The notes: a model not told the origin generated them from the sequence alone. A stretch of 64,000 nucleotides of DNA from Pelagibacteraceae bacterium (GCA_017639935.1 JAGFWP010000010.1:11213-75212); one strand, 5' to 3'. Positions 12,799-37,381 are shown, counted from the first letter of the stretch. Numbers and translations are program-made.

Positions 12799-12821
12799 TT
12801 GACAAGTAAAACGTTTTATTA
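12799..12821 (+). promoter_or_regulatory. promoter (-35 TTGACA) with overlapping LacI-type palindromic operator TAAAACGTTTTA, copy 1 of 4 (ABC operon A)
   Basis: The 23-mer TTGACAAGTAAAACGTTTTATTA is identical at 19146, 29951 and 37359. The perfect 12-bp palindrome with central CG sits at 12807-12818. Confidence 0.75.
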
Positions 12822-12892
12822 ATTATATCAATATAATTAAATTAATTTAATGTTGGTTTCTAAATTAATTAATAAATTTTTTAGGAGGTACT

Positions 12893-14206
12893 ATGAAAAA
12901 GACTTTTCAAGCTTTAATAGCTTTAGTAACTCTAGTTTTCCTATCTTTTCCATCCTTTGCGGCTCCAATTGAGCTTCATTATTGGCATGGACACACTGGT
13001 AAACTGGAGTCTATCATAAATGAAATAGCTAATAGATGGAACGCAAAGCAAGATGAATCTAAATTAATTCCTACTAGTAAAGGAAGTTACGAGGATATCT
13101 TAGCGGCATTTATTGCAGCATACAGGGCTGGCGAACATCCTCATATGGTTCAAGTCTATGATGCAGGTGCAGCAATCATGGTTGCGCAGGTAAAAAATGG
13201 AGTTGTATATCCGTTTGAAGATATGGCAGCAGAGCATGGTGTAAATTTCAATAAAGATGATTACATTCCAGGGATCAGAAATTTCTATGCAGATTCAGAT
13301 GGAAAAATGATTGGCATTCCTTTCAACAGCTCAACTTGTTTAATGTACGCTAATATGGACATTTTAGAAGCAGCTGGTGTAACAGAAATTCCAAAAACTT
13401 ATGAAGAGTTTGAAGGCATTGCACAGCAAATTAAGGACGCTGGATATATTCCAATGTTACAAAGTCATAGCCCTTGGATTTGGACTGAAAACTTCTTTTC
13501 CAGACATAATCTTTTAATGACTGATGGCAATAATGGTTATGATGCTGTTCCAACAACAACACTTTTCGCTGACACTCCAGAATTTATTACTCACTGGGAA
13601 AAAGTTAAAGAGTGGAAAGATAAAGGATGGTATGATTACAAAGGACGTGCATGGGGTGACAACCAAGCTCCTTTCATTGCAGGCGAAGCAGCTTTTTGGC
13701 TTGGTTCTGCAGCATCATTTAGTGGCATGAAGGGTGTTGTTCCAAACTTTTCTGTTAATCACATTCCTTATTGGAGCTCAATGACTGGTGGAAAAGCATA
13801 TCCAACATTTATTGGGGGTGCAGCAAATTGGATCTTGTCTGGTAAATCAGATGAAGAATATTCCGCTCTCATGAAATTAGCAGAATATATGACCACTCCT
13901 GAAATCCAATTATTCTATCATAATATGTCAGGTTATGCTGCTGTAACTTATTCAGCAACAGAACTTGCAAATGCAATTGGATTCTACAATGCATCTCCAT
14001 ATCATCAAGCAGTTGGAGAACAGTTAAGTTTAACTGGCTCAACTATTCCTGGTGGATACAGAGCTGGCAACTGGCCTCAAATTCGTGAAGTGATTTACGA
14101 AAATGTTCATAAAATGTTATCTGGAGAAATTTCTGTAGAACAAGGTTGGAAAAATACTGATGCAGGCGCTGCTAAATTACTAGCGCAATTTGCAAAAACT
14201 TTATAA
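12893..14206 (+). CDS. ABC transporter substrate-binding protein, family 1 (UgpB/MalE-like)
   Basis: Signal peptide (..LSFPSFAAP), size, and position at the head of a permease-permease-ATPase operon. Strong SD TTAGGAGGT. Confidence 0.9.
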   Translation: MKKTFQALIALVTLVFLSFPSFAAPIELHYWHGHTGKLESIINEIANRWNAKQDESKLIPTSKGSYEDILAAFIAAYRAGEHPHMVQVYDAGAAIMVAQVKNGVVYPFEDMAAEHGVNFNKDDYIPGIRNFYADSDGKMIGIPFNSSTCLMYANMDILEAAGVTEIPKTYEEFEGIAQQIKDAGYIPMLQSHSPWIWTENFFSRHNLLMTDGNNGYDAVPTTTLFADTPEFITHWEKVKEWKDKGWYDYKGRAWGDNQAPFIAGEAAFWLGSAASFSGMKGVVPNFSVNHIPYWSSMTGGKAYPTFIGGAANWILSGKSDEEYSALMKLAEYMTTPEIQLFYHNMSGYAAVTYSATELANAIGFYNASPYHQAVGEQLSLTGSTIPGGYRAGNWPQIREVIYENVHKMLSGEISVEQGWKNTDAGAAKLLAQFAKTL

Positions 14207-14219
14207 ACTAAATAATTTT

Positions 14220-14241
14220 AAGGAGGACGTAAGTCCTCCTT
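14220..14241 (+). terminator. GC-rich intra-operon hairpin after the SBP gene (attenuator / mRNA stabiliser)
   Basis: AAGGAGGAC-gtaa-GTCCTCCTT. Confidence 0.6.
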
Positions 14242-14257
14242 AATCTCTTTAATTTCT

Positions 14258-15136
14258 ATGAAAAAAGTTCAATTTAGTTCATATTTTACGCAATATTTTT
14301 TTGTTGCACCACAACTTGCGATCATTTTAATTTTTTTATATTTGCCAATTGTTCAAACATTTACTGATGCCTTTACAACTCAGGATGCATTTGGTTTTGG
14401 AAGGTATTTTTCAGGTTTTGATAATTTTATTTTTTCTATGTCGGATGCTACGTATTTAAGAGCATTTAAATTTACTATTATTTTCATATGTGTGATTACT
14501 TTTTTTTCCTGTTCCATAGGATTGCTTTTAGCAGTTCAGGCAAATAATGTTATTCATGGCAAAAGTTATTACAAAACCTTGCTCATCTGGCCCTATGCTA
14601 TAGCGCCTGCAGTTGTAGGAGTAACAGCGAATTATTTTTTCAGTGAAAGATTAGGAATTTTGTATAGTTTTTTTCATAACATTTGGGGTTTTAATTGGTA
14701 TGACAATATATATGACGCTTACATTTATGTTTTTATTGCAGCAACTTGGAAACAAATAAGTGCAAATTTTATTTTCTTTTTAGCAGGACTTCAAACCATT
14801 CAAAAATCCATCATTGAAGCGTCAATGATTGATTGTAAAAGTAACTTTAGAAGATTTTGGACTATTACTTTTCCTTTATTAATGCCAACTACCTTTTTCT
14901 TAATAATTATTAATATTACTTACGCTTTTTTTGATACACTTGGGATTATAGATACGACAACTATTGGAGCGCCTAGTGGTGAAACCAAAACACTTGTTTT
15001 CAAGGCTTATATTGATGGCTTTAGAGGACTTGATATTGGAAGTGCTGGGGCCCAATCAATCATTATGATGTTGATTGTTTTAGTAATCACAGTTTTTCAA
15101 TTTAGATTCATTGAAGGAAGGATACATTATAATTAA
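14258..15136 (+). CDS. ABC sugar-type permease (UgpA/MalF-like)
   Basis: Six TM segments and EAA loop EASMIDCKSNFRRFWTITFP. Confidence 0.9.
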   Translation: MKKVQFSSYFTQYFFVAPQLAIILIFLYLPIVQTFTDAFTTQDAFGFGRYFSGFDNFIFSMSDATYLRAFKFTIIFICVITFFSCSIGLLLAVQANNVIHGKSYYKTLLIWPYAIAPAVVGVTANYFFSERLGILYSFFHNIWGFNWYDNIYDAYIYVFIAATWKQISANFIFFLAGLQTIQKSIIEASMIDCKSNFRRFWTITFPLLMPTTFFLIIINITYAFFDTLGIIDTTTIGAPSGETKTLVFKAYIDGFRGLDIGSAGAQSIIMMLIVLVITVFQFRFIEGRIHYN

Positions 15137-15960
15137 TGAGCAGAACAATTTCTCAATATTTGGTTCACATTATTTTGATTGTTGGAGTTCTTCTAATGGT
15201 TGTTCCAATCTGGATTATCTTTGCTAGTTCCACTCATGATAATGGTACAATATTATCACAGGGAATGCAGTGGGGCTTAGGTGATCAATTTATTGAAAAC
15301 TATGATAGAGTGTTAAACCAAAAAGGAGGGTTTTCTCAAGAGATTACAGCTTCTAGTATGCTCATAAATAGTTTTATTATGGCATTTGGCATTGCAACTC
15401 TTACGGTACTTACATCACTAATGTCTGCTTATACTATCGTATATTTTAGATTCAAACTTGCTGTGCCTATTTTTTGGATAATCTTTTTAACTTTGCTTGT
15501 ACCGCTTGAACTTAGAATAATGCCAAGCTATCAAGTAGTTTCTAATCTTGGTCTTGTGAACACTTACACTGGTTTGATATTGCCGTTATCAGCCTCAGCT
15601 ATTGCTACTTTTTTTTTCAGGCAGTTTTACAAATCCGTTCCTGACGAACTCTTGGAAGCCGCAAAGCTGGACGGTGCCAATAGTTGGAAATTTTTCATTG
15701 ATTTTTTAGTTCCTTTATCCAAAACCATGATTGCGGCGATGTTCATCTTCATGTTTGTCTATGGATATAATCAATACCTGTGGCCTTTGATCATGACGAC
15801 AGATGAGAAATATTGGACCGTCGTGATGGGAATGAAAACTATCTTTATGTCATGGGGAGTAGAAAGATTTTCCTACATCATATTATCAATGATACCCCCA
15901 GTATTAGTTGTGATTTTTTTACAGCGTTGGTTTATTCAAGGATTGTTTCAAACAAAATGA
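15136..15960 (+). CDS. ABC sugar-type permease (UgpE/MalG-like), tandem paralog 1
   Basis: EAA loop EAAKLDGANSWKFFIDFLVP. Confidence 0.9.
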   Translation: MSRTISQYLVHIILIVGVLLMVVPIWIIFASSTHDNGTILSQGMQWGLGDQFIENYDRVLNQKGGFSQEITASSMLINSFIMAFGIATLTVLTSLMSAYTIVYFRFKLAVPIFWIIFLTLLVPLELRIMPSYQVVSNLGLVNTYTGLILPLSASAIATFFFRQFYKSVPDELLEAAKLDGANSWKFFIDFLVPLSKTMIAAMFIFMFVYGYNQYLWPLIMTTDEKYWTVVMGMKTIFMSWGVERFSYIILSMIPPVLVVIFLQRWFIQGLFQTK

Positions 15961-16808
15961 ATAAAAGAATAGTTCAATTTTTATCGCATACAATCCTCAT
16001 TCTAGGAGTATTATTGATGGTTGTTCCAATTTGGATCGCTTTTGCTAGCTCAACACATGAAAATGTAACCATTTTAAAAGAAGGAATGCAATGGGGCCTT
16101 GGAGACCAATTAGTCAGAAATTATAATGAAGTATTAAATCAAAAAGGCGGCTTCTCGCAGGAGATCACTGCCACGAGAATGTTCATCAACAGTTTCATCA
16201 TGGCTTTTGGAATTGCGAGCATAAAAGTTATTATTTCATCTATGTCGGCGTATGCGATTGTGTATTTTAGATTTAAACTAGCCGTGCCTCTTTTTTGGTT
16301 AATATTTATAACACTGTTAGTGCCATTAGAAGTAAGAATTCTTCCAAGCTATCAAGTCGTATCTGACTTAAATTTAACAAATTCCTATACAGGCTTAATT
16401 CTCCCATTAGTTGCGTCCGCCACGGCCACTTTCTTCTTCAGGCAGTTTTACAAATCCGTTCCTGACGAACTCTTGGAAGCCGCAAAGCTGGACGGTGCCA
16501 ATAGTTGGAAATTTTTCATTGATTTTTTAGTTCCTTTATCCAAAACCATGATTGCGGCGATGTTCATCTTCATGTTTGTCTATGGTTACAGCCAATACCT
16601 GTGGCCTTTGATCATGACGACAGATGAGAAATATTGGACCGTCGTGATGGGAATGAAAATTATCTTTCAGGAATCTTATGAAGGTGGAAATTTACCAAGA
16701 GTTGCTGAGAGATTCGCATATATTATTTTATCAATGATACCTCCTATTCTAGTAGTAGTATTTTTACAGCGTTGGTTTATTAAGGGATTGATTCAAACAG
16801 AGAAATAA
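15957..16808 (+). CDS. ABC sugar-type permease (UgpE/MalG-like), tandem paralog 2
   Basis: Collinear with paralog 1. Start ATG 15957 (MNKRIVQFLSH..) gives an ATGA overlap. The track start at 15813 would overlap paralog 1 in another frame. Confidence 0.88.
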   Translation: MNKRIVQFLSHTILILGVLLMVVPIWIAFASSTHENVTILKEGMQWGLGDQLVRNYNEVLNQKGGFSQEITATRMFINSFIMAFGIASIKVIISSMSAYAIVYFRFKLAVPLFWLIFITLLVPLEVRILPSYQVVSDLNLTNSYTGLILPLVASATATFFFRQFYKSVPDELLEAAKLDGANSWKFFIDFLVPLSKTMIAAMFIFMFVYGYSQYLWPLIMTTDEKYWTVVMGMKIIFQESYEGGNLPRVAERFAYIILSMIPPILVVVFLQRWFIKGLIQTEK

Positions 16809-17861
16809 ATGAGTTTTTTAGAATTAAAAAATATAACAAAAGTATACCCTAACGGGACTAAAGCGATAAATGAAACTTCTTTAAATATTGAATATGGTGA
16901 GTTTATGGTTTTTGTAGGACCAAGTGGTTGTGGTAAATCAACATTGCTTAGAATGATCGCGGGTCTTGAAGATATAACTGAGGGCGAAATTGATCTTGAT
17001 GGAAAAACTATTAATAAAATTGATCCATCTGAAAGAGATGTTGCTATGGTTTTTCAAAACTACGCTTTATACCCGCACATGAATGTATATAAAAACTTAT
17101 CTTATGGTTTAAAAAATAGAGGTGAATCAAAAGAAAACATTGATAACAAAGTCAAAGAAGTTGCTGAACTGCTAGAAATAAAAGAATATCTTCAAAGAAA
17201 ACCAGCTCAACTTTCTGGAGGACAAAGACAAAGAGTAGCTATGGGAAGAGCAATAGTGAGAAACCCTAAGGTATTCTTATTTGATGAACCTCTTTCTAAT
17301 CTTGATGCAAAATTGAGAGGACAAGTTAGAATTGAAATTAAAAAATTACAACAAAGCATGAATGTTACAAGTGTTTTTGTAACGCACGATCAAGTGGAAG
17401 CAATGACACTAGGTGACAGATTGGCTGTAATTAATAATGGAGTAATTGAACAGCTTGGAACTCCAATAGAGGTTTATGAAAAACCCGCGAGTAAATTTGT
17501 TGGTGAATTTATAGGAAGCCCTCAAATGAACTTTGTGAATGGAGCAATTAACAACAATAATTTTGAGTCAAGCAGCTTTAAGTTAAATAAAGATTTAAAC
17601 ATTGATAATGCAAGTGTCGTCTTAGGTTTTCGAGCAGAAGATTTGAATTTAAAAGAAGAAGGTGAAATATCCTTAACCATAGACATAATTGAAAAACTTG
17701 GATCTGATAGCATTATTTATGGAAGAGACAAAGATGGCCAATCTATTTGTTACAAAGAAAGCGGCAACACTAAATTAGAAGTTGGTGAAATTATAAATAT
17801 CTCCCTGGACGTTGATGCAGTTCATATTTTTGATGAAAAAACAGGCAAAAGACTAAATTAA
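16809..17861 (+). CDS. ABC transporter ATP-binding protein (UgpC/MalK-like)
   Basis: Walker [10 protein letters not shown], signature LSGGQRQR, Walker B LFDEPLS, and a C-terminal regulatory (TOBE-like) domain. Confidence 0.95.
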   Translation: MSFLELKNITKVYPNGTKAINETSLNIEYGEFMVFVGPSGCGKSTLLRMIAGLEDITEGEIDLDGKTINKIDPSERDVAMVFQNYALYPHMNVYKNLSYGLKNRGESKENIDNKVKEVAELLEIKEYLQRKPAQLSGGQRQRVAMGRAIVRNPKVFLFDEPLSNLDAKLRGQVRIEIKKLQQSMNVTSVFVTHDQVEAMTLGDRLAVINNGVIEQLGTPIEVYEKPASKFVGEFIGSPQMNFVNGAINNNNFESSSFKLNKDLNIDNASVVLGFRAEDLNLKEEGEISLTIDIIEKLGSDSIIYGRDKDGQSICYKESGNTKLEVGEIINISLDVDAVHIFDEKTGKRLN

Positions 17862-17900
17862 TAATTTTTTACGGAAAAATAAAAATATATAAAATTGCTT

Positions 17901-18947
17901 ATGGCAAAAATTCTAATTTTAGGCGCTGGCGCAATGGGATCGGCTTTCTCAGTTCCGTTGCTTGAACGCCAACATGAAGTAATGATAGCGGGCACTCATC
18001 TTGAAGATGCATTCATTGATGAAATGAAAAATAATAATAATTTTCATCCCGGTTTGAAACTCCATCTTTCAGAGAAGACAAACATTATAAAATATATGAA
18101 CTTGTCTAAGGAATTAAGAAAGAATCCAGATTTGATTGTGCTCGGGATAAGTTCTAAAGGAATCAACTGGGTTGTTGATCAACTAGGTGCTTTTTTTAAC
18201 GATGGCACATTGCCCCCCATTCTGATGCTTACAAAAGGTCTAAGTATTCATGAAAATAAATATGAATTATTGGTTGATAAACTGGAGAGACTGCTAATTA
18301 GCAAGGGATTTAAAAATACAAATATTTCTGCGGTTGCCGGCCCCTGTCTCGCCAATGGGTTGGCCAGTAAAGTTCATACCAGTGTTATCTTTGCAAATAA
18401 GAATTTAAAAACTGTTGAGTGGCTAAAGAATATTTTGACCACTGATTATTACCATCCTTCAATTTCTGACGACATGACAGGGATTGAAGTTTGCGCGGCC
18501 ATTAAAAATATTTTTTCAATGGTTATCGGCTTCTCTAAAGGACTGTATGATGAAGTAGCGGAGGATGGATTAAAAGAAAACAACTACCTTAATACTTCCG
18601 CCTCCTTAATCAGTCAGTCTCTGTATGAAATGGGGTTGTTTGTGGATTTTTTAAAAGGAAATGAGAAAACCGTATACGGACTTGCGGGTCTGGGAGACTT
18701 ATTCGTTAGTTCTCAAGGGGGGAGAAACAGTAAGATGGGTGAATACATGAGCAAGGGTTGCGTTTACTCCGAAGTGAAAAAATCTAAAATGCCGGCAGTA
18801 ACTGTTGAAGGTGCGGAATTGGTGTTTGAAATTGGAGCAAACATAAAAAATGATTTTAGCATAAAAAAAATGCCCCTACTTATTGGGATGGTGGACGCTA
18901 TTTTGGATGATAAGAAATTTGAAATTAACTGGAGATATTTTCATTAA
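17901..18947 (+). CDS. NAD(P)-dependent glycerol-3-phosphate dehydrogenase family protein (GpsA-like, divergent)
   Basis: ILILGAGAMGSAF Rossmann motif, and a C-terminal domain with AGPCLANGLA and DMTGIEVCAAIKNIFSMVIGFSKGL (GpsA pattern D..GvE..galKNv.Aia.G). Confidence 0.75.
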   Translation: MAKILILGAGAMGSAFSVPLLERQHEVMIAGTHLEDAFIDEMKNNNNFHPGLKLHLSEKTNIIKYMNLSKELRKNPDLIVLGISSKGINWVVDQLGAFFNDGTLPPILMLTKGLSIHENKYELLVDKLERLLISKGFKNTNISAVAGPCLANGLASKVHTSVIFANKNLKTVEWLKNILTTDYYHPSISDDMTGIEVCAAIKNIFSMVIGFSKGLYDEVAEDGLKENNYLNTSASLISQSLYEMGLFVDFLKGNEKTVYGLAGLGDLFVSSQGGRNSKMGEYMSKGCVYSEVKKSKMPAVTVEGAELVFEIGANIKNDFSIKKMPLLIGMVDAILDDKKFEINWRYFH

Positions 18948-19145: not shown

Positions 19146-19168
19146 TTGACAAGTAAAACGTTTTATTA
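19146..19168 (+). promoter_or_regulatory. promoter/LacI-type operator, copy 2 of 4 (ABC operon B)
   Basis: Identical 23-mer. Palindrome at 19154-19165. Confidence 0.75.
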
Positions 19169-19245
19169 ATAAGTTATTTTTGCTGATTATTAATTATTAT
19201 ACAATTTAATATAATTCTTAATATGACTATTTGTTAGGAGAAAAA

Positions 19246-20541
19246 ATGAAAAAATTTATTTATTTAATGAGTAATTTTGTATCAATATTTAAAACTTTGG
19301 GTTTTATTTTTTTTACAACTTTAGTTGTTTTATCTTTTAATGTTAAAGCAGCAGAAATTAAATTTATATGTTATCAAGATAGCAACGAGTGTGACACCAT
19401 TGCTGAAATGGCAAAATCCTGGGAATCATCAACTGGTAATAAAGTTAACATTGAAACAGTCGGGTACGAGGTTATCAGAGAACAGCTAGAAAACCAATTA
19501 GAATCAGATGCGGCCCCAGATGTAGCAAGAGTAACAAATCTGGGAGGTCTAAATAAATTCTACCTAGATCTAAAACCTTATGTAGATTCATCATATTGGG
19601 AAACTAACTATGGTGCTACCTTGCCATGGTACCGCAAACCATCTGGAGATGACGGTATTTATGGTTGGCAAACTCAGCTTACTGTTACAGGTCCATACGT
19701 AAATGTGACTATGTTTGAAGACGCTGGTGTTGATATGCCAGAAGAAGGCGCTTCATGGGATGATTGGGCAGATGCTCTTAGAAAAGTTAAATCAGAACTA
19801 GATTTAACAGCTGGACTAGCATTGGATAGAACAGCGCATAGATGGGCTGGACCCGCGTTTTCTTATGGTGCTAAATTTCACAAAGATGGCGTTCCAATTT
19901 TAGTAGATGAAGGTTTCAGAAAATTTTCTGAAGTCTTTGTTGGATGGCATAAAGAAGGACTAATGCCTGTTGAAGGATGGCCTGCAGGTTCAGGAACAGC
20001 TTATAAAAATGCTGCGCCATTATTTTTGGATGGCACTGTAGCAATGCATATGTCAGGTTCATGGATGTTAGGAAATTATGATAAAAACATAACAGACTTT
20101 CAATGGAAAGTCGTTCCAATTCCGTGCGGCCCAGGTGGCTGTGGAGCAATGCCAGGTGGCTCAGGAGTAGTTGCTTTTAAATCAACTAAACATCCTGATG
20201 CAGCTGCATCTTTTATTAACTTTTTGTCTCAAACCGAAAATGCTGAAAATTTTGCTGCTAAAACCAGCAACATTACTGCACATCAAGGTTTGCAAAAGTC
20301 TGGTATTGACTACAAAGGCGTAAGCCCTGTTGTAGCCGAAGGCCTGGCTATTTTTGCCGCAAACGCGGGAAAAGCAGCTGATTCAACTCCACAAGCTTAT
20401 TGGTTCCAAGGTTATAATAAAAACTTTGCAATTTATGGAATTGTTCCAGACTATATAACAAAAGCTATCACAGGCGAAATGAGCCTTGATGATGCTTTAA
20501 ATGCAATAGATGCTGACGTTGCTGCAAAAATTGCTGAGTAA
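19246..20541 (+). CDS. ABC transporter substrate-binding protein, family 1
   Basis: Signal peptide ending ..NVKAAE. ATG 19246 lies after the SD GTTAGGAGAAA, and the TTG 19231 in the track overlaps that SD. Confidence 0.9.
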   Translation: MKKFIYLMSNFVSIFKTLGFIFFTTLVVLSFNVKAAEIKFICYQDSNECDTIAEMAKSWESSTGNKVNIETVGYEVIREQLENQLESDAAPDVARVTNLGGLNKFYLDLKPYVDSSYWETNYGATLPWYRKPSGDDGIYGWQTQLTVTGPYVNVTMFEDAGVDMPEEGASWDDWADALRKVKSELDLTAGLALDRTAHRWAGPAFSYGAKFHKDGVPILVDEGFRKFSEVFVGWHKEGLMPVEGWPAGSGTAYKNAAPLFLDGTVAMHMSGSWMLGNYDKNITDFQWKVVPIPCGPGGCGAMPGGSGVVAFKSTKHPDAAASFINFLSQTENAENFAAKTSNITAHQGLQKSGIDYKGVSPVVAEGLAIFAANAGKAADSTPQAYWFQGYNKNFAIYGIVPDYITKAITGEMSLDDALNAIDADVAAKIAE

Positions 20542-20561
20542 TTTAGTTTAAGAATATTTTT

Positions 20562-20585
20562 AAGGCCGCTATTCACAGCGGCCTT
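20562..20585 (+). terminator. GC-rich hairpin after the SBP gene
   Basis: AAGGCCGCT-attcac-AGCGGCCTT. Confidence 0.6.
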
Positions 20586-20606
20586 AAAAGAAATTAATAT
20601 ACCAAA

Positions 20607-23095: not shown

Positions 23096-23100
23096 ATTTT

Positions 23101-24117: not shown

Positions 24118-24158
24118 TATTAATTAGTAATTCATAATCCCTCAGGATTTTATTTTAT

Positions 24159-26573: not shown

Positions 26574-26618
26574 TATTACCTATTGTTCGTATGATAATTT
26601 CATTTAAAAAGATCTTTT

Positions 26619-27116: not shown

Positions 27117-27688
27117 TGAACCGTTTTGAATTACTAAAGTCATTACAACCTATGTTACAAGATAATTTGATAGTATGTAACATCGGAATTCCCTCACAAG
27201 AGCTGTATCACATAAACGATCAACCAAATTATTTCTACATGCTTGGGAGTATGGGGTTAGCATCTTCTATTGGATTAGGTTTGTCCTTATCAGTTGATAA
27301 AAATGTTATAAGCATTGATGGGGATGGATCTGTCTTAATGAATATGAATACACTTGCAACTGTTGGAAATAGAGCGCCCAATAATTATACTTTGTTGATT
27401 ATTGACAATAGTTCGTATGGCTCCACGGGAGATCAAAAAACATTTACTGATGAAAAAACAAATTTAAAAGAAGTTGCAATCGGCGCCGGTTGTCGCAATG
27501 TAATTGAGTGCAACGGATCTGATACACCGTCAAATCTAGAAAAAGCACTAGGTGATAAAAATAATTCTTATGTTATTATTTCAAAAATCAATTCCGGCAA
27601 TGTTGCGGTAAAACCAATTCCAATAAATCCTATTACAATAAGAGATCGTTTTAGAAAGATTATTGGAAAAGTTGACTACCTCAAATAA
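27116..27688 (+). CDS. TPP-dependent decarboxylase, beta subunit (ComE-like)
   Basis: GSMGLASSIGLGLSL and the TPP-binding GDGSVLMNMNTLATVG...IDNSSYGSTGDQ. ATGA-type overlap with the alpha subunit. Confidence 0.8.
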   Translation: MNRFELLKSLQPMLQDNLIVCNIGIPSQELYHINDQPNYFYMLGSMGLASSIGLGLSLSVDKNVISIDGDGSVLMNMNTLATVGNRAPNNYTLLIIDNSSYGSTGDQKTFTDEKTNLKEVAIGAGCRNVIECNGSDTPSNLEKALGDKNNSYVIISKINSGNVAVKPIPINPITIRDRFRKIIGKVDYLK

Positions 27689-27705
27689 AGCCCTTCCATT
27701 TATCA

Positions 27706-29794: not shown

Positions 29795-29950
29795 ATTATT
29801 TAACAATTATTAAAATGACATTTTATGTTTTTTTATTACATAAGCTTCTTTTATTAAACATCCACTTATTAAAATATTTATCTTTTTATCAGAAGAACAT
29901 GGCATTTTTTTATTTATCCCAGAAATATGAATATTCTTTTCATAATAGTA

Positions 29951-29973
29951 TTGACAAGTAAAACGTTTTATTA
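29951..29973 (+). promoter_or_regulatory. promoter/LacI-type operator, copy 3 of 4 (ABC operon C), followed by an extra half-site
   Basis: Identical 23-mer with palindrome at 29959-29970. CGTTTTATTAAT is repeated at 29980-29991, just before a TATAAT at 29992-29997. Confidence 0.75.
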
Positions 29974-30048
29974 ATACATCGTTTTATTAATTATAATCGT
30001 AAAAAAATTATAATAATTTTTGATATAATTTTCTAGTTAGGAGAAACA

Positions 30049-31275
30049 ATGAGAATATTAAAATATTTAATTATTTTAAGTACAATATTTGCTTCATCAA
30101 TTTCTTCGGCAGGTACATTGGTTGTAAACTCTAACCAATCCGGTGAATCCTCGGAAGCGGCATTTAATGCTTACGTTGCGGCATTTGAAGCGGCACACCC
30201 AGATATTGATGTGCAAGTAAATTTAACTGAACATGAAGCCTATAAAACAGCTATCAGAAATTTCTTGGTTGCGGAAGCGCCAGATGTAGCTATCTGGTTT
30301 GCTGGCAATAGGATGAAATTCTTTGTTGATCAAGGCTTGTTCATGGACGTCAGTGATGTCTGGGCTGATGCAGATCTCAATAACATAATGTCATCATCAA
30401 AAGCTTCTTTGAGCGTTGAAGGCAAACAGTATGGTGTTCCATGGGGTTATTACCAATGGGGTGTTTATTACCGGAAAGACATCTTTGATAATCTGGGACT
30501 TAATGTTCCTAAGGATTGGGCTGAGTTTAAATGGGTGTGCGCAATGTTAAAGAAAAATGGGATAACACCAATTACTATTGGAACAAAATATCTTTGGACC
30601 GCTGCTGGGTGGTTTGATTATTTGAACTTAAGAATCAATGGATATGCATTCCATATGGGCCTAACAGCAGGTAAAATAAGTTATGAAGATAGTAGACTTG
30701 ACGCTGTGTTTGATGCTTGGAGAGAGTTAATTGAACCAGGGTATTTCCTAGAAGACCATGCGACTTACTCTTGGCAAGAAGCGCAAGCTCCACAAATTAA
30801 TGGAGAAGCTGCTATGTATTTGATTGGTAACTTTTATGTTCCGACTTTAGAAAGCGCAGGTGTTGTTGATAAAATGGATTTTTTCCAATTTCCACCTATC
30901 AAGCCAGGCGTAGGAATGTATGAAGATGCACCAACTGATACAATGCATATTCCAAGTGGCGCTAAGAATGTAGTGGATGCAAAAAAATTCCTAGCATTCA
31001 TGTCAGATCCTTCCGCAGCAACTAATTGGGCAAAAATGGGCGGCATGCTAAGCCCTAACTCTCTTGCAGATGCTCCAACTGATCGTTTTCAACAAATGGG
31101 GTTTGCGATGTTGAATGCAGCGGATGGTTTGGCCCAATTCTATGATCGCGACGCTAATCCTGATATGGCGAAAGCTGGCATGGAAGGTTTCCAGGAATTT
31201 ATGGTTAAGCCTGACCGTGAGGCTAAAGTTAGAGCAAGAATGGAAAAGGAACGTAGGCGTATCTACGGAGAATAA
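30049..31275 (+). CDS. ABC transporter substrate-binding protein, family 1
   Basis: Signal peptide (..SSISSAGT) and SD GTTAGGAGAAA, at the head of a permease pair. Confidence 0.9.
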   Translation: MRILKYLIILSTIFASSISSAGTLVVNSNQSGESSEAAFNAYVAAFEAAHPDIDVQVNLTEHEAYKTAIRNFLVAEAPDVAIWFAGNRMKFFVDQGLFMDVSDVWADADLNNIMSSSKASLSVEGKQYGVPWGYYQWGVYYRKDIFDNLGLNVPKDWAEFKWVCAMLKKNGITPITIGTKYLWTAAGWFDYLNLRINGYAFHMGLTAGKISYEDSRLDAVFDAWRELIEPGYFLEDHATYSWQEAQAPQINGEAAMYLIGNFYVPTLESAGVVDKMDFFQFPPIKPGVGMYEDAPTDTMHIPSGAKNVVDAKKFLAFMSDPSAATNWAKMGGMLSPNSLADAPTDRFQQMGFAMLNAADGLAQFYDRDANPDMAKAGMEGFQEFMVKPDREAKVRARMEKERRRIYGE

Positions 31276-31289
31276 GAATTGATATTTTT

Positions 31290-31319
31290 AAAGGCGGAGC
31301 TATGTTTCCGCCTTTTTTT
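31290..31319 (+). terminator. hairpin + T-run after the SBP gene
   Basis: AAAGGCGGA-gctatgtt-TCCGCCTTT followed by tttt. Confidence 0.7.
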
Positions 31320-31339
31320 GTTTATAGTAAATTTTCATA

Positions 31340-32254
31340 ATGACATTCTGGCAAAGAAATCAATTAAGAATCGCTCCATTTTATTTCCTGGCTCCAGGAT
31401 TAATGTTATTTTTAATTTATGTAATTTATCCAATAATAGATTCCATTTGGGTTAGTTTCCACGAATGGAATGGAATGTCAAAAGATCTTTTAAAAGCAGA
31501 CGGCACACCTAAAAATTGGAAATGGGTTGGATTTGGAAATTACATTGATTTATTTCAAGATGAAGATTTTTATGTAGCTTTTTTTAATAATGTTAGATGG
31601 CTAATACTTAGTCTTTTAGTTATTCCCTTAGGTTTAGCGTTAGCACTTTTTTTAAATCAAGATTTCAAAGGAATGAGATACATCAAGTCCCTTTTTTATT
31701 TTCCATTTGTGATCAACTTGGTCGTTGTTGGACTTATATTTGCCTGGTTTTATAATCCAAAATATGGTCTTCTTGGACAAGCCTTCAGCGGTCTTGGACT
31801 TAAACCTATTCCTATTCTGTCCGATGAGCTCTATGCAACATATGGCATTATATTCGCCTCTTTTTGGCCTTCCATAGCTTACACTATGATCATTTATATC
31901 ACGGGCTTGACGGGAATAAATCGTGAAATGATTGAAGCGGGAAGAATTGATGGTGCGTCAGGATTTAAAATGCTTTGGCACATAATACTACCACAACTGA
32001 AACCCGCAACTTTAATAGCAGTCGTAGTAACCATTGTCGGTGCGCTTAGAAGTTTTGATTTAATAGCTATTATGACGGCAGGAGGACCATGGGGCAGCAC
32101 CAAAGTTCTTGCTTATAAAATGTACGAGGAGGCATTGTTTAATTTTCGAATGGGATATGGCGCTGCAGTTGCAACAATATTGTTTTTACTGATGGATATC
32201 TACATTGCATATTTTTTATATAATTTATTCAAGAATGAAAGAGGCGCGAAATAA
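31340..32254 (+). CDS. ABC sugar-type permease (MalF/UgpA-like)
   Basis: EAA loop EAGRIDGASGFKMLWHIILP. Confidence 0.9.
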   Translation: MTFWQRNQLRIAPFYFLAPGLMLFLIYVIYPIIDSIWVSFHEWNGMSKDLLKADGTPKNWKWVGFGNYIDLFQDEDFYVAFFNNVRWLILSLLVIPLGLALALFLNQDFKGMRYIKSLFYFPFVINLVVVGLIFAWFYNPKYGLLGQAFSGLGLKPIPILSDELYATYGIIFASFWPSIAYTMIIYITGLTGINREMIEAGRIDGASGFKMLWHIILPQLKPATLIAVVVTIVGALRSFDLIAIMTAGGPWGSTKVLAYKMYEEALFNFRMGYGAAVATILFLLMDIYIAYFLYNLFKNERGAK

Positions 32255-33105
32255 TGTTTCCAACACCCATTCAAAAAGCGTCTCTTAAAATTAACATCAC
32301 GTATAAAGTTCTACTTATTATCACTCTTGTGCTTTGGTTACTGCCTTTGATTGCTGTGATGATGACTTCAGTTCGCACCAGCGGAGATATTTTGAAAGGC
32401 AATTATTGGACTGTTCCAACGGAGTTTGCTTTAATTGAAAATTATGGAACCGTTTTTAAACTGGGCAATTTAGCGCGCTACTTTTTTAACAGTCTAGTCA
32501 TTACCCTTCCAACAGTCCTGGGCACGATTGTTTTAAGCTCCATGACCGGATACACCTTAGCTGTACACCGGTTTAAATTAAATTTTTTGGTTTTCGCAAT
32601 GTTCATTGCAGGAAACTTCATACCGTTTCAGATTTTGATGATTCCAGTGAGACATCTCACAATCAATTTAGGAATGTATGACACATACTGGGGTTTGATT
32701 GTTTTTCATATTGCCTTTCAAACAGGTTTTTGCACCTTCTTTTTAAGGAACTTTATTAAAGAATTGCCATTTGAGTTAATAGAATCAGCAAGGGCAGACG
32801 GCGCGACTGAATGGACCATTTATCGGAAAATCATAATACCGTTAACTTTGCCCGCCATAGCAGCCTTAGCAGTGCTTGAGTTTACTTTTATTTGGAATGA
32901 TTATTTTTGGTGCCTGATATTATCACAGAGTGAAGGAACCAAGCCCATAACGCTGGGGTTGCAAACTTTACAAGGTCAATGGATGTCCTCGTGGAACATC
33001 GTTTCCGCGGGATCTGTCGTAGCAGCTCTTCCGCCCGTCATTATGTTCTTTACAATGCAAAAACATTTTATTCAAGGATTGACTTTTGGAGCGGTTAAAG
33101 GATAA
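32254..33105 (+). CDS. ABC sugar-type permease (MalG/UgpE-like)
   Basis: EAA loop ESARADGATEWTIYRKIIIP. Confidence 0.9.
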   Translation: MFPTPIQKASLKINITYKVLLIITLVLWLLPLIAVMMTSVRTSGDILKGNYWTVPTEFALIENYGTVFKLGNLARYFFNSLVITLPTVLGTIVLSSMTGYTLAVHRFKLNFLVFAMFIAGNFIPFQILMIPVRHLTINLGMYDTYWGLIVFHIAFQTGFCTFFLRNFIKELPFELIESARADGATEWTIYRKIIIPLTLPAIAALAVLEFTFIWNDYFWCLILSQSEGTKPITLGLQTLQGQWMSSWNIVSAGSVVAALPPVIMFFTMQKHFIQGLTFGAVKG

Positions 33106-33173
33106 TTTGTTTTAAGAATCACTTGTATTGAAATACAAAAGTATTAGAAGAAATTTATCTTAGAAGACGTTAA

Positions 33174-34193
33174 ATGACAGAATTAAATCAAACCGCATTA
33201 AAAATAGTTTCAAATGGCAAAGGCATTTTAGCGGCTGACGAAAGCACAGGGACGATGACAAAGCGGCTTGATTCAATCAACGTTGCATCCAGTCCTGAAA
33301 ACAGGTTAATCTTTAGGGAAGCGTTATTTTCATCAAATGGAATGGAGAATTTTATCGGTGGAGTGATTTTGTTTGATGAGACAATAAAACAAAGTACAAA
33401 ATCAGGTAACAGCATACCTGAGTTGATTAATCAGAGTGGAGCTGTTATCGGAATAAAGGTCGATGCTGGAGCAAAAATTCTTGCCGGCTCCCCAGAAGAA
33501 AAAGTTACTGAAGGATTGGACGGGCTCAGAGAAAGATTGACTGAATATTATAAATTGGGAGCAAGATTTACAAAATGGAGGGCCGTATATAACATTACTG
33601 AAAAACATCCCTCAGAGTTAGCAATTAAATCAAACGCCCATGCCTTGGCTAGATATGCAGCCTTGGTTCAAGAAGCAAACATGGTTCCTATTGTTGAACC
33701 AGAAGTCTTAATGGATGGCGATCATGACATTAATAAGTGTTATGAAGTAACAGCAAAGGTTTTAAATGAATGCTACAAAGAACTAAAATTGCATAATGTG
33801 GATTTAAAAGGAACAATATTGAAACCCAATATGATTTTGCCTGGAAATGGATCAAAAAATGAAAGTAGAACTGGAGAAATTGCTAAAATGACGCTTAAGT
33901 GCTTAAAAGAAAATGTGCCAGGCGAGGTTCCTGGAATAGCTTTTTTATCAGGCGGCCAAACAGAAATTGAAGCAACACAAAACTTGAATGAAATTAATAA
34001 AATTAATGATACAAATTTTGCACTGACCTTTTCTTACGGCAGAGCCCTTCAGCAAAGTGCGTTACAATATTGGGGAAAGAATCAAGAAGATCTTGTCAAT
34101 GTACAAGAAATATTCAGTCATAGGGCTAAAATGAATAGCTTATCTACATTAGCCAGATGGACAGAAAATCTGGATAAAATTAATATTCAATAA
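33174..34193 (+). CDS. class I fructose-bisphosphate aldolase family protein
   Basis: ILAADESTGTMTKRL and the Schiff-base lysine context GTILKPNMILPG, with full-length collinearity to the glycolytic class I aldolase family. Confidence 0.9.
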   Translation: MTELNQTALKIVSNGKGILAADESTGTMTKRLDSINVASSPENRLIFREALFSSNGMENFIGGVILFDETIKQSTKSGNSIPELINQSGAVIGIKVDAGAKILAGSPEEKVTEGLDGLRERLTEYYKLGARFTKWRAVYNITEKHPSELAIKSNAHALARYAALVQEANMVPIVEPEVLMDGDHDINKCYEVTAKVLNECYKELKLHNVDLKGTILKPNMILPGNGSKNESRTGEIAKMTLKCLKENVPGEVPGIAFLSGGQTEIEATQNLNEINKINDTNFALTFSYGRALQQSALQYWGKNQEDLVNVQEIFSHRAKMNSLSTLARWTENLDKINIQ

Positions 34194-34199
34194 TTTTTC

Positions 34200-35246
34200 A
34201 TGACATCAATTCGTTGGGGCATTATTGGTCCAGGAAATATCGCGCATAGGTTCGCTGATGGATTAGAAGAAGCAAGATCAGGTGAATTGGTTGCTATTGC
34301 CAGCACCAATGAAGGGAGAAGAAAATCATTTGGCGATAAATACAATATTGATTCAACACTTCGTTTCTCCTCTTATGATGAATTAGTTGAATCATCGGAC
34401 ATTGACGCTATTTATATCTCCACCCCCCACACACTTCATGCGGAATGGACGATAAAGGCTGCGGGCAGAGGAAAACACGTATTATGTGAAAAGCCAGGAG
34501 CGGTTAATCTTGAAGAAGGTAAGCAAGTCATACAAGCTGTACAGGAAGCAGGTGTTTTTTATATGGAGGGCTTTATGTATCGGTGCCACCCGCAAATAAA
34601 AACATTGCTTAAACTTATTAAAGAAAAAAAGATTGGAGAGATCAAATCAATAAAATCCTCTTTTGGATTTGATACGGGTAAAACAATTCCCAAGTCTCGT
34701 TTATTTAATAAAGAACTAGCAGGCGGGGCAATACTCGATGTAGGAGTTTATCCCATATCCTTTTCCCGCTTGGTAGCGGGCGCCGCTAGTGGAAAAAAAT
34801 TCCTTAATCCAGTCAAGTTATCGGGATCTGCCACAATTGGAGAGACGGGCGTGGATGAAGTTGCACACGCTAAATTTGAATTTGAAAATGGTATTGTAGC
34901 TGAAGCATCAACGGCCATACGAGAAGAGATGACTGATGATGCAATAATTACAGGATCAAAAGGAACCATTGAAATGAGTGAACCTTGGACGCCTGGAAAA
35001 GATGGGGAAGGATATCATTCAACAATAAAGATTAATATAAACGATAACACCGAGATTGTTGATATGAAAGGCCAAGAACATTTATTTTATTTTGAGGCTG
35101 AGTTGGCGAGTCTATCGATAAAAGATAATAAATTAGAAGTCCCACATCCGGGTATGACTTGGGAGGACACACTTGGCAATCTCAAAACCCTTGATGATTG
35201 GAGGGAACAGATTGGTTATTCAATTCAACGTGATTCAACTTCATAA
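34200..35246 (+). CDS. Gfo/Idh/MocA-family oxidoreductase
   Basis: IRWGIIGPGNIAHRF Rossmann and CEKP motif. Confidence 0.88.
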   Translation: MTSIRWGIIGPGNIAHRFADGLEEARSGELVAIASTNEGRRKSFGDKYNIDSTLRFSSYDELVESSDIDAIYISTPHTLHAEWTIKAAGRGKHVLCEKPGAVNLEEGKQVIQAVQEAGVFYMEGFMYRCHPQIKTLLKLIKEKKIGEIKSIKSSFGFDTGKTIPKSRLFNKELAGGAILDVGVYPISFSRLVAGAASGKKFLNPVKLSGSATIGETGVDEVAHAKFEFENGIVAEASTAIREEMTDDAIITGSKGTIEMSEPWTPGKDGEGYHSTIKININDNTEIVDMKGQEHLFYFEAELASLSIKDNKLEVPHPGMTWEDTLGNLKTLDDWREQIGYSIQRDSTS

Positions 35247-35252
35247 ACTTTT

Positions 35253-36215
35253 ATGCAATACGATACAATTCCAGGATTAGAAAAAAAAATATCTAAGTTG
35301 ATTATGGGCAATGATAATCAGACAGATTACGATAGCGCCGCTGAATTATGGGATCACTGGATTAGCGTTGGAGGAAATGCTTTTGATAATGCATTTATGT
35401 ATGGTGAGGGTTCAATGGAGAAGCTTCTTGGGCGATGGCATACGGCAAGAAATAACAGAGATGACTTAATAATAATAGCCAAGGGCGCACACACACCAAA
35501 CTGTGATCCAAACAGTTTGTCTGAACAACTAACGATTTCATTGGATCGGTTGCAGATTGATCAGGCTGACATTTACATAATGCATAGGGACAATATCGAA
35601 GTTCCCGTTAGTGAATTTATGGATGTTTTGAATAAAGAAAAAGAAAAAGGACGTATAAAAATTTTTGGAGGATCCAACTGGAGTTTGCAAAGATTCATTG
35701 AAGCGAATGATTGGGCAAAAAAAAATGAAAAAGAAGAGATGGCTGTATTAAATAATAATTTAGCCCTTTCAAAGATGATCAATCCTTTATGGCAAGGATG
35801 CGTTTCCTCTAATGATGCTGCAATTCTTGAACATCTACGCACCTCCCAAAAAGCTCATCTTTCCTGGTCCAGTCAAGGAAGGGGATATTTTTTACCCGAA
35901 AAAATTCGACAATCAATTGAAGATAAAATTACTAAAGATGAATCCTCTTGGAGACAACCAGGGGAAAAAAGCAGCGGTCCGATCAGTTGTTTTAACAGCC
36001 CTGATAACAGAATAAGACGTCAAAGAGCGGAGGATTTAGCAAAAGATCTTAATTTTACAACACAAAATATAGCCACTGCTTGGACGCTAAACCAGCCTTT
36101 TCCATCTTTTTCTTTAATTGGGCCTAGAAAAATAAACGAAATAGATTCAACACTTCCATGTCTAAATGTTTCTTTGACTAGTGATAAGATGCAATATTTA
36201 AATCTTTTGGATTAA
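35253..36215 (+). CDS. aldo/keto reductase family protein
   Basis: NAFDNAFMYGEGSMEKLLGRW, with the layout and length typical of AKRs. Confidence 0.8.
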   Translation: MQYDTIPGLEKKISKLIMGNDNQTDYDSAAELWDHWISVGGNAFDNAFMYGEGSMEKLLGRWHTARNNRDDLIIIAKGAHTPNCDPNSLSEQLTISLDRLQIDQADIYIMHRDNIEVPVSEFMDVLNKEKEKGRIKIFGGSNWSLQRFIEANDWAKKNEKEEMAVLNNNLALSKMINPLWQGCVSSNDAAILEHLRTSQKAHLSWSSQGRGYFLPEKIRQSIEDKITKDESSWRQPGEKSSGPISCFNSPDNRIRRQRAEDLAKDLNFTTQNIATAWTLNQPFPSFSLIGPRKINEIDSTLPCLNVSLTSDKMQYLNLLD

Positions 36216-36222
36216 AAGATAA

Positions 36223-36237
36223 CGTGGTTGGTGGTAG
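36223..36237 (+). repeat. partial copy of repeat 'B' (CGTGGTTGGTGGTAGA)
   Basis: Shares the G-rich core with 2538-2553. It lies in the convergent gap between the AKR gene and the LacI gene. If active as a promoter it would read antisense into the regulator gene. Confidence 0.3.
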
Positions 36238-36276
36238 ATTATATATATTTGTTTGTTAAAATATTATAGGTTTGAG

Positions 36277-37311
36277 TTATTTCACTAAAGGTCCATCGCT
36301 TTTACCTTCATGAAGTATAGGTTCAATTAATTTACAAACTTCATCAGGATGGTAACCATTTTCAATTTTCTTTAAAATATTAACTGAATCTATTCCCATT
36401 TGAGAAAGCGGATGACTGATGTAGGTAAGATTTTGTGAACTTAAATAATTATCGTAGTCATTATATCCAACAAGGGAAATATCTTTGCCTATATTTAATT
36501 TTTGATTCTTACATTCTAACAGACAGCCGATTAAGAGTTTATCAAGTGAACAAATAATTGCGGTGGGAGGATCCTTGAGATTCAAAAGAACTTTTGTGAG
36601 TTTAACGCCATTATCAGTTAAACTTAATAATGAATCTTGATAATAATCTTTATTTAATGGAATATTGTTTTCTTTTAAGATACGTTCGTAAGTTATCTTA
36701 CGTTGATATCCGTAATTAAAACTTTGATGAACATTGATAAGTGCGATTTTTCTATGACCAAATTTAATTAATCTATCAGCTATTATTTCAATACTTTTTT
36801 CATTATCCATATCAATCCAAGCATATCCTTTTTCATTTTTTTCTCTCCCCCAAGAAATAAAATTGATGTTATTTTTTTTTAACATAGCTATTCTTGGATC
36901 ATTCTTCTTTGTTCTGTAAAAAATAAATTTATCTGCCTGATTTGATCTTATTAATTTTTCATAGTAATCAATTTCATCTTTTTCACGTAAGGTAAACTTT
37001 ACAATTAGTTCAGTATTACTATCTTTAATTCCCTTTGATATACCCGCGAGAAATTCTAACAATACAAAGTCAGGAGCTTTTGGTTCGATAGTTGCTATAA
37101 AAGCTATTGTATCCGATCTTTTTGAAGCTAGTCGTCTAGCAAAGGGATCAGGGGTATAATTAAATTTCCTTGCAGCTTTGAAAATTCTTTCTGTTGTTTT
37201 TTTTGAAATATTTTTGTGACCATTTAGCGCTCTGGAAACAGAGCTTACAGATAGGTTAAGTTTTTTGGCCAGATCAGTAATACTTATCTTTTTTCTTGTT
37301 GAATATGGCAT
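36277..37311 (-). CDS. LacI-family transcriptional repressor
   Basis: N-terminal HTH ITDLAKKLNLSVSSVSRALNG plus a periplasmic-binding-protein-like effector domain. Confidence 0.92.
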   Translation of the reverse strand: MPYSTRKKISITDLAKKLNLSVSSVSRALNGHKNISKKTTERIFKAARKFNYTPDPFARRLASKRSDTIAFIATIEPKAPDFVLLEFLAGISKGIKDSNTELIVKFTLREKDEIDYYEKLIRSNQADKFIFYRTKKNDPRIAMLKKNNINFISWGREKNEKGYAWIDMDNEKSIEIIADRLIKFGHRKIALINVHQSFNYGYQRKITYERILKENNIPLNKDYYQDSLLSLTDNGVKLTKVLLNLKDPPTAIICSLDKLLIGCLLECKNQKLNIGKDISLVGYNDYDNYLSSQNLTYISHPLSQMGIDSVNILKKIENGYHPDEVCKLIEPILHEGKSDGPLVK

Positions 37312-37358
37312 TTTTATAAATTATCCCAATTATATAAGTATTATTTTATACAATATTA

Positions 37359-37381
37359 TTGACAAGTAAAACGTTTTATTA
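37359..37381 (+). promoter_or_regulatory. promoter/LacI-type operator, copy 4 of 4 (divergent region between the regulator and the methyltransferase operon)
   Basis: Identical 23-mer with palindrome at 37367-37378. It starts 48 bp upstream of the regulator start codon, so autoregulation is likely. Confidence 0.75.

Follow-up and report, generated by a model that had tools for sequence, protein, structure and literature searches.

The DNA considered here is a stretch of 64,000 nucleotides from a Pelagibacteraceae bacterium (GCA_017639935.1, JAGFWP010000010.1:11213-75212), referred to below as the window. It contains an island of sugar-uptake and catabolic operons in which a 23-nucleotide sequence, TTGACAAGTAAAACGTTTTATTA, occurs four times and in which one gene, lacI, encodes a LacI-family repressor (Table 1). 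We consider it likely, from the sequence comparisons described below, that the 23-mer is a composite control element, consisting of a -35 hexamer and an adjacent operator for this LacI, and that the one repressor co-regulates several operons. An earlier reading of the same DNA (the original prediction) had proposed such LacI-wired units; comparative genomics strongly supports the wiring, while the length of the operator, the role of the fourth unit, the number of units and their exclusivity have had to be corrected.

Table 1. Features of the sugar island and its borders, with positions counted from the first base of the window. O1 and O2 are the first and second predicted operators; SBP, solute-binding protein; SAM, S-adenosylmethionine.
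Feature	Position	Strand	Description
tRNA-Met	11221-11297	+	
MFS transporter gene	11354-12532	+	
Unit 1	12799-12821	+	-35 TTGACA (12799-12804) and O1 AGTAAAACGTTTTATT (12805-12820); heads operon A
Operon A	12893-18947	+	UgpB-like SBP, UgpA-type permease, two tandem UgpE-type permeases, MalK-type ATPase, GpsA-like NAD-dependent dehydrogenase
Unit 2	19146-19168	+	-35 and O1; heads operon B
Operon B	19243-28641	+	SBP, two permeases, MalK-type ATPase, GH31 alpha-glucosidase-type hydrolase, ComD, ComE, PGDH-like 2-hydroxyacid dehydrogenase
Divergent Gfo/Idh/MocA oxidoreductase gene	28631-29713	-	IolG-like match below cut-off
lacI 5' remnant	29873-29905	-	about 33 nt including ATG, upstream of unit 3; aligns with 37279-37311
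Unit 3	29951-29988	+	-35 and O1 (29951-29973), degraded second operator AATACATCGTTTTATT (29973-29988); heads operon C
Operon C	30049-36215	+	AcbH-like monosaccharide SBP, two permeases, class I fructose-bisphosphate aldolase, Gfo/Idh/MocA, aldo-keto reductase
lacI	36277-37311	-	LacI-family repressor gene, 344 aa; PF00356 and PF13377
Unit 4	37359-37396	+	-35 and O1 (37359-37381), degraded O2 AGTTAATCGTATTACT (37381-37396)
Relic ribosome-binding site	37446-37454	+	GGGAGGAAA; from a deleted glucose/mannose-type SBP gene
Methyltransferase/GFA pair ("operon D")	37548-38782	+	SAM-dependent methyltransferase and GFA-domain protein
Conserved MlaC, MlaA, UvrD, LigA genes	from 38837	mixed	

Domain and profile annotation agreed with the gene content assigned earlier to operons A to D. 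Within each operon the genes lie on the same strand, separated by gaps of 0-68 nt. The intergenic regions that hold the units, previously put at 230-360 bp, measure 360, 295, 335 and 236 bp for units 1 to 4. Most of the extra length is decayed duplicated sequence upstream of the units. A structured leader or riboswitch as the reason for it was rejected, because Rfam at gathering thresholds found no riboswitch in these regions and returned, in the whole window, only the tRNA-Met and a bacterial class A RNase P RNA gene (46170-46517, 303 bits).

A scan of the window found the four copies of the 23-mer where the original prediction had placed them, all exact and all on the + strand. No further copy with three or fewer mismatches is present anywhere in the 64 kb, including the 39 kb outside the island, and the number expected by chance, from 100 shuffles, is 0. 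The inner 12-bp palindrome is likewise exact at the four units only; when one or two mismatches are allowed, its matches fall to the chance level (17, including the four exact ones, against 14.3 expected). Ungapped comparison of unit with unit, anchored on the 23-mer, gave 100% identity across the 23 bases and 26-55% in the flanks, which is near background for DNA of about 70% A+T. Because identity is so sharply bounded, the units do not belong to a long, recent duplication. Unit 1 is retained in the population variants L033, L042 and L053 although the neighboring bases vary. L042 illustrates this variation, since its 23-mer is intact and four bases just upstream and one just downstream differ.

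The placement of the copies relative to genes is regular. The SBP genes of operons A, B and C begin 71-75 nt past the 3' ends of copies 1-3, so that the distance from the center of the predicted operator to the ATG is 80.5 bp for unit 1 (ATG at 12893), 83.5 bp for unit 2 (ATG at 19243) and 84.5 bp for unit 3. Unit 3 also faces the divergent Gfo/Idh/MocA gene. Copy 4 lies upstream of lacI, as had been claimed, and starts 47 nt before the divergent lacI ATG; its operator center is about 61 bp from that ATG and 175.5 bp from the ATG of the methyltransferase gene, with 166 nt between the end of the copy and the latter. In a survey of 1,303 LacI-family regulators, the sites were even palindromes of 16-22 nt, nearly all with a central CG, located mostly 30-140 bp upstream of start codons, and 72% of the regulators were autoregulated (PMC4052901). 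The operator of the window fits these rules, with 16 bp, an even length, a CG center and distances of about 61-84.5 bp from the lacI and SBP starts. The distance from unit 4 to the methyltransferase gene is outside the usual range.

The length of 16 bp follows from comparison with related loci, in which the conserved core is a CG-centered palindrome, AGTAAAACGTTTTACT, located directly after TTGACA. The original prediction of a 12-bp palindrome beside the -35 was therefore right about the CG center and the consensus hexamer and wrong about the length. Most relatives carry the perfect palindrome AGTAAAACGTTTTACT, whereas O1 of the window, AGTAAAACGTTTTATT, contains one C-to-T departure from it (...TTTTATT) that is common to all four units. 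In many lineages a second operator lies 16 bp downstream of the first, and it is this element that is degraded in units 3 and 4. The intergenic region between lacI and the SBP gene in L008-L010, whose LacI is 73% identical to that of the window, holds two perfect 16-mers 16 bp apart, with TTGACA 7 nt upstream of the first copy. L012 (LacI 74% identical) has the same layout with a perfect first and a degenerate second operator. In L001, a Caspian metagenome-assembled genome (MAG; LacI 65%), and in L011 (LacI 62%) the palindrome is fused directly to TTGACA. The displacement of TTGACA by 7 nt in L008 and L012 indicates that palindrome and -35 are separable elements, both of which overlap the promoter.

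The properties of the LacI protein are consistent with recognition of such a site. It has an N-terminal LacI-type helix-turn-helix (HTH; PF00356), with residues 9-62 aligning with the DNA-binding domain of CcpA, and a C-terminal effector domain resembling periplasmic binding proteins (PF13377). Full-length alignments to the structures of CcpA and PurR have E values of 4e-28 to 1e-20, CcpA being the best solved relative, and the hinge sequence ARRLASK aligns with ARGLASK of CcpA, including the Leu. Overall identity among 31 full-length orthologues is only 55-90%, yet none of them shows a change in the recognition helix or in the hinge (ARRLAS). The invariant DNA-reading residues of LacI thus match the invariant operator, and this is the pairing that we propose. 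No other regulator gene is present in the island, in agreement with the original prediction of lacI as the only regulator of the region. The identical LacI protein occurs in 346 blocks of the metagenome collection, and proteins identical to LacI, GH31, ComE, the aldolase, UvrD and an SBP occur in many Pelagibacteraceae MAGs; a search of genome contigs with the LacI protein gave a single match, in the distant MAG L001.

Comparative evidence comes from the co-occurrence of motif and regulator in relatives, a check suggested by the original prediction. When the metagenome collection was scanned with the 20-mer TTGACAAGTAAAACGTTTTA, 73 stretches were found, 58 of them AT-rich and SAR11-like. Within 42 of these 58 stretches there is an orthologue of this LacI, with 56-93% identity. 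For about 36 of the latter, the distance from the start of the motif to a divergent lacI ATG is 33-48 nt (mostly 43-48), comparable with the 47 nt of unit 4, and the opposite operon has its first gene about 35-85 nt from the motif. Where the locus is most compact, the entire spacer between lacI and the SBP gene is about 100 nt, so that the promoter of the transporter operon must overlap the motif, and no other conserved palindrome is evident in these short regions.

Every SAR11-like context found for the motif is a transporter or sugar-catabolic operon, and at least seven different cassettes are headed by it. Among them are a glucose-type ATP-binding cassette (ABC) operon, AP_endonuc_2 and Gfo genes alone, operon C-type transporters (L030, L075 and L081, in which the SBP-C genes are preceded by units orthologous to unit 3), operon A (L033, L053), a TctCBA tripartite transporter (L014, L044, L048), and a CUT2-type ABC transporter, which in L037 adjoins an IolD-like enzyme. 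Upstream of TctC/TctB/TctA genes the 20-mer is sometimes doubled head to tail, with the operators 20 bp apart (L048 4751-4790, L061 252-291, L084 92-131); in L061 an ammonium transporter gene lies just upstream of the doubled element. Operon C is the constant neighbor of lacI in almost all related loci, and neither in the window nor in the other lineages examined does it contain an ATPase gene. The original prediction had called a multi-operon regulon unexpected in a lineage of minimal regulation. The predicted circuit does comprise several operons, but it is not peculiar to one genome and appears instead as a widespread, modular SAR11 locus.

A lacI-less locus served as a negative control. 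The 8HQQ sequence, rebuilt from an alignment, was used as query for relatives of SAR11_0769, and L101 (JGI Ga0211577_10000433) was found to encode an SBP 88% identical to SAR11_0769. The L101 cluster contains ribose-type ABC genes, RbsD, PfkB kinase, AP_endonuc_2, three Gfo-family enzymes and a ROK protein. The operator is absent from this 16-kb glucose locus at three or fewer mismatches. L101 was rejected as an instance of the same system, being a different locus that lacks both lacI and the operator.

These comparisons suggest how the unit may work. The -35 is perfect, and the best -10 candidates at spacings of 16-18 nt are AATTAT (unit 1), ATAAGT, ATACAT and GTTAAT. Across 39 non-redundant SAR11-like units the -10 consensus at 17-nt spacing is AAaaaT, in which A2 and T6 are kept. 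With the predicted spacer of 17 nt, the operator would take up all of the space that separates the -35 from a weak, A-rich -10. If a LacI dimer bound there, the leucines of its hinge helices would enter the central CpG and RNA polymerase would be excluded, until a sugar-type effector released the repressor. The sequences, their conservation and the linkage to lacI are observed directly; binding, repression, the effector, the starts of transcription and the shared ATPase are inferred, and steric exclusion of the polymerase seems the most economical reading of the geometry. The repressor would in this way co-regulate operons A, B and C and probably also the divergent Gfo gene and lacI itself, with the methyltransferase/GFA pair being reached by read-through only. 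Since operon C has no ATPase of its own, its co-induction with A or B, which encode MalK-type ATPases, would make functional sense, and the ATPase of A or B is presumably shared with operon C.

Several observations weigh against this interpretation. The -10 elements downstream of the predicted operators are poor, and in units 2-4 there are better matches to TATAAT 40-50 nt further downstream, so that the true start of transcription could differ from the predicted one. Unit 4 no longer heads a transporter gene. In the relatives L010 and L011, operon C is without a recognizable operator, which indicates that membership of the regulon is lineage-specific. Finally, the same 20-mer serves as a promoter in uncultured myophages, which show no link to LacI.

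The last point bears on the possibility that the palindrome is the site of some other dimeric regulator, for instance one that resembles Crp/Fnr or NtcA, and that the operator of LacI lies elsewhere. The sequence GTAAAACGTTTTAC fits GTA-N8-TAC, the pattern known for NtcA, and since phage promoters contain the motif as well, the factor that reads it may be independent of the island. However, the palindrome holds a fixed position beside lacI across lineages whose LacI proteins range from 56 to 100% identity, its CG center and even length are typical of LacI-family sites, the DNA-reading residues of LacI are as invariant as the site, and the roughly 100-nt lacI-SBP regions offer no second conserved palindrome to which LacI might be assigned. 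We therefore regard a different regulator as very unlikely.

A further alternative is that the 23-mer is simply a strong, generic sigma-70 promoter and that its nearness to lacI is incidental. The phage data lend this some substance. Among the 73 motif-bearing stretches, 15 are not SAR11-like, and 12 of these, together with all 13 matches in IMG/VR, are phage-like, with G+C fractions of 0.34-0.45 (L013, L018, L020, L023, L028, L032, L036, L039, L045, L051, L055 and L062; L088-L100). One such contig has dam and gp62 genes 67% identical to those of T4-like cyanophages and another a tail sheath 42% identical to that of PA5oct-type jumbo phages. The phage contigs contain several copies each (up to 4 in 6 kb) of TTGACA-AGTAARACGTTTTACYT-TATAnT, located upstream of small, early-type genes and trailed by a conserved leader. 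The register of -35 and palindrome is that of the SAR11 units, but the -10, at 17 nt, is canonical. The motif is absent from a 41-kb region of cyanophage Syn33, the closest nucleotide match to one phage contig. A phage-encoded LacI was considered and rejected, since no relative of the island LacI was found in the viral contigs searched.

The phage copies thus show an arrangement compatible with a strong promoter, and the generic reading is kept at low probability; for the island itself it seems to us very improbable indeed. The original prediction had feared a promoter scattered over unrelated genes. In SAR11-like DNA this fear was not realized, since the contexts found are confined to transporter and sugar operons, most of them with a lacI orthologue in the stretch, but outside it the 20-mer is also a multi-copy myophage promoter. 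Within the window no other gene carries a copy, and the lacI-less glucose ABC locus has none. Promoter strength, moreover, does not require a perfect 16-bp CG-centered palindrome, and L008 and L012 keep the palindrome although their -35 sits 7 nt away. As a speculation that we hold to be improbable, the composite LacI-responsive unit may be a portable "socket", such that operons acquiring it join the LacI circuit and recombination swaps them; myophages may have captured the promoter, so that their early transcription would be gated by the host repressor or would titrate it.

The origin of the units can be traced in part. About 30-40 nt upstream of the 23-mer, units 2-4 share TTATCCCA, which on the opposite strand corresponds to the region just before the lacI ATG. 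Together with the remnant of the lacI 5' end beside unit 3, this shows that the units, unit 3 in particular, spread by duplication of the control region divergent from lacI, after which the flanks decayed while the 23 bases stayed. The duplicated lacI promoter remnant faces the Gfo/Idh/MocA gene at 28631-29713, which makes this gene a plausible, indeed likely, fifth member of the regulon. The least credible alternative is that the copies have no regulatory role and are neutral traces left by recent duplication, by gene conversion or by a small mobile element. The lacI remnant, the lineage-specific C-to-T change shared by all four units and documented recombination between units speak for it. 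Against it, identity ends precisely where the -35 and operator end, while the flanks duplicated with them have fallen to 30-55%; lineages with unalignable flanks (L029 versus L026) have kept the same 20-22 bases; and neither terminal inverted repeats nor target-site duplications nor a transposase is present. For the same reasons, the absence of terminal repeats and transposase and the confinement of identity to 23 bp, a mobile element or miniature inverted-repeat transposable element was rejected.

Unit 4 has a different history from that first supposed. In most lineages the gene divergent from lacI encodes a glucose/mannose-type SBP (annotated at JGI as a glucose/mannose transporter), the nearest structures to which are the glucose-binding proteins 5XPJ, 5DVF, 4R2B and 8HQQ (SAR11_0769; 217 bits). 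This gene is followed by those for two permeases, a MalK-type ATPase, AP_endonuc_2 and a Gfo-family enzyme and then directly by MlaC. In L026, L057 and L029, where O2 is AGTAAATCGTTTTACT, the O1-O2 stretch is homologous to unit 4. The alignment to L026 and L057 runs through O1, the degraded O2 and the ribosome-binding site and ends there, with no ATG following. Since homology stops just past the ribosome-binding site without a start codon, the glucose-type transporter operon must have been deleted in the lineage of the window, and unit 4 is the ancestral control region between lacI and this transporter. The claim that unit 4 heads operon D must be modified accordingly: the unit is indeed located upstream, but its control of the methyltransferase/GFA pair is doubtful, and the pair is probably a read-through passenger and not an original member of the LacI regulon.

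Being identical, the units are substrates for recombination that adds or removes whole operons, and one such event was found. Among 21 contigs with the identical LacI that were read, L002 and two similar contigs lack operon B and the divergent Gfo gene. In L002 the 1,500 nt to the left of the junction are 98.9% identical to the left flank of unit 2, and the 1,500 nt to its right are 99.7% identical to the right flank of unit 3. This is an exact indel of 10,805 bp with its breakpoint inside the 23-mer, unit 2 providing the left and unit 3 the right breakpoint, and the junction is a simple hybrid of the two units, as expected from homologous recombination between repeats. An integron or site-specific cassette system was rejected because the junction fits homologous recombination and no dedicated integrase accompanies the array; there is none within 11.3-40 kb, and the only one in the window (10084-11031) belongs to a separate island at tRNA-Met.

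Compared with known systems, the circuit resembles the local sugar regulons of the LacI/GalR family (GalR/GalS, PurR, CcpA-cre and the alphaproteobacterial regulators of sugar ABC transporters, PMC4052901) in the HTH and sensor domains of its regulator, in the even, CG-centered, 16-bp palindrome 30-140 bp upstream of starts, in the divergent and probably autoregulated repressor gene, and in its targets, which are sugar ABC transporters and catabolic enzymes. It differs from the usual regulons in the base-for-base fusion of the operator with a consensus -35, in the identity of the operator from target to target, in its size of about 22 genes in 4-5 units, when 93% have 20 or fewer (PMC4052901), and in its host, which has a streamlined SAR11 genome. 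As far as can be judged in silico it is a classical local regulon of the family by every testable criterion, made unusual by the base-perfect fusion of operator and -35, the size of about 22 genes and the SAR11 host.

Other comparisons are partial. Promoters are known, both synthetic and natural, whose spacer between -35 and -10 contains a lac-type operator, so that repressor and RNA polymerase compete for the same DNA; the SAR11 case is natural, is kept in many lineages and often has a second operator 16 bp downstream. In the MsiK model of Streptomyces, one MsiK/MalK-type ATPase serves several CUT1 sugar ABC transporters. Operon C, with its SBP and two permeases and no ATPase, is similar, with MalK-type ATPases available in A, in B and in the glucose-type operon of other lineages. 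The sharing proposed for SAR11 would differ from that model in involving co-regulation by one repressor and not a constitutive orphan ATPase. The promoter-early stem-loop (PeSL) cassettes of T4-type phages are repeated, near-identical promoters that flank gene modules and act as recombination points. Like them, the SAR11 repeats serve modular shuffling, and a phage promoter family shares the 20-mer of the window; unlike them, the units of SAR11 lie in the chromosome, are linked to the gene of a repressor and are devoid of a stem-loop. The SBP divergent from lacI in L008-type loci belongs to the same glucose/galactose-binding family as the SAR11_0769 transporter (PMC11485210), but the 88%-identical relative of the latter lies beside a ROK protein without lacI or operator, and the window has lost its glucose-type operon.

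No heterotroph of the ocean is more abundant than SAR11, and its transporter genes have been described as constitutive with little transcriptional control, phosphate and iron being the exceptions (PMC11485210). No description of a SAR11 LacI circuit or operator was found in the literature searched, the coverage of which did not extend to Schwalbach et al. 2010 on the SAR11 "glycolysis operon". The locus points to a conventional inducible circuit that, in many SAR11 lineages, controls sugar-uptake genes which vary and are specific to the ecotype. The defined operator of 16 bp and the repressor of 344 aa form a directly testable pair, the operator may be used as a marker to list from metagenomes the transporters that SAR11 populations place under sugar control, and the operon-sized indel at a repeat provides one concrete route by which this hypervariable island is remodeled. 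The type of mechanism is that of the textbooks, and the value of the case lies in SAR11 physiology and population genomics and not in new molecular biology.

The substrates of the island can be guessed at from its enzymes. The SBP of operon A has UgpB as its nearest structures (E values of 1e-60 to 1e-66), and the operon resembles one for uptake and subsequent oxidation of glycerol-3-phosphate or glycerophosphodiesters. Its tandem UgpE/MalG-type permease genes (15136-16808) are 82% identical and overlap by 7 nt, a duplication present in all population variants seen. In L042 (3064-3945) the MFS gene is separated from unit 1 by an inverted permease gene, or part of one, that shares 91% identity with the third permease of operon A. 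SBP-C resembles AcbH, a binder of monosaccharide (galactose).

The association of GH31 with ComDE in operon B raised the possibility of a sulfoquinovose island, which was rejected. Aligned with E. coli YihQ, the GH31 protein has R319, F322 and the F of DIGGF at the positions of the sulfonate-binding triad, so that only the arginine is kept and two of the three residues are missing. In sulfoquinovosidases of the YihQ type this triad is R301/W304/Y508 (E. coli numbering). The protein groups with classical alpha-glucosidases (212 bits, versus 86 for YihQ), in agreement with NCBIfam, and the island contains no genes for a sulfoquinovose isomerase, kinase, monooxygenase or dioxygenase. ComD and ComE do reach the equivalog cut-offs for the subunits of sulfopyruvate decarboxylase, a two-subunit TPP enzyme (TIGR03845, 156.0 versus 147.95; TIGR03846, 221.5 versus 221.5, exactly at threshold). 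With the PGDH-like dehydrogenase they would convert sulfolactate to sulfoacetaldehyde or, by analogy, might take glycerate via hydroxypyruvate to glycolaldehyde. Our best guess, made with low confidence, is that the substrates are hexoses and phytoplankton alpha-glucosides with a C3-acid or glycerol aglycone and that the effector of LacI is of the hexose type.

The aldolase of operon C is a bona fide class I fructose-bisphosphate aldolase (NF033379, 488 bits against a cut-off of 250). At the same position of the operon, other lineages encode a class II enzyme (TIGR01521, 590 against 496), so that the slot is filled by class I in the window (33174-34193) and by an equally bona fide class II, CbbA-type enzyme in L011 (13027-14091). 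The swap is a non-orthologous replacement.

Upstream of the sugar island, a direct repeat of 205 nt (95% identical; 2097-2301 and 11071-11275, 8,974 bp apart) brackets a block that ends with the tyrosine integrase gene (10084-11031, - strand), and the right copy overlaps the first 55 nt of tRNA-Met. The block from 2097 to 11275 looks like an integrated element of about 9 kb at the tRNA. Its cargo includes genes for an SDR, an alpha/beta hydrolase, LigT and a metallophosphoesterase, and a stretch of it without Pfam-recognizable open reading frames contains a 94-nt repeat (90% identical; 2414-2507 and 3509-3602) and an exact 31-nt repeat (2526-2556 and 3060-3090). The G+C content of the sugar island (12001-38000) is 31-38%, as compared with 23-30% in the conserved downstream region (40001-62000), which hints at a different origin or at different constraints. 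GC-rich hairpins lie directly 3' of the SBP genes of operon A (14218-14243) and operon B (20558-20589), and these look like intra-operon attenuators or stabilizers that would raise the level of SBP mRNA relative to that of the permeases.

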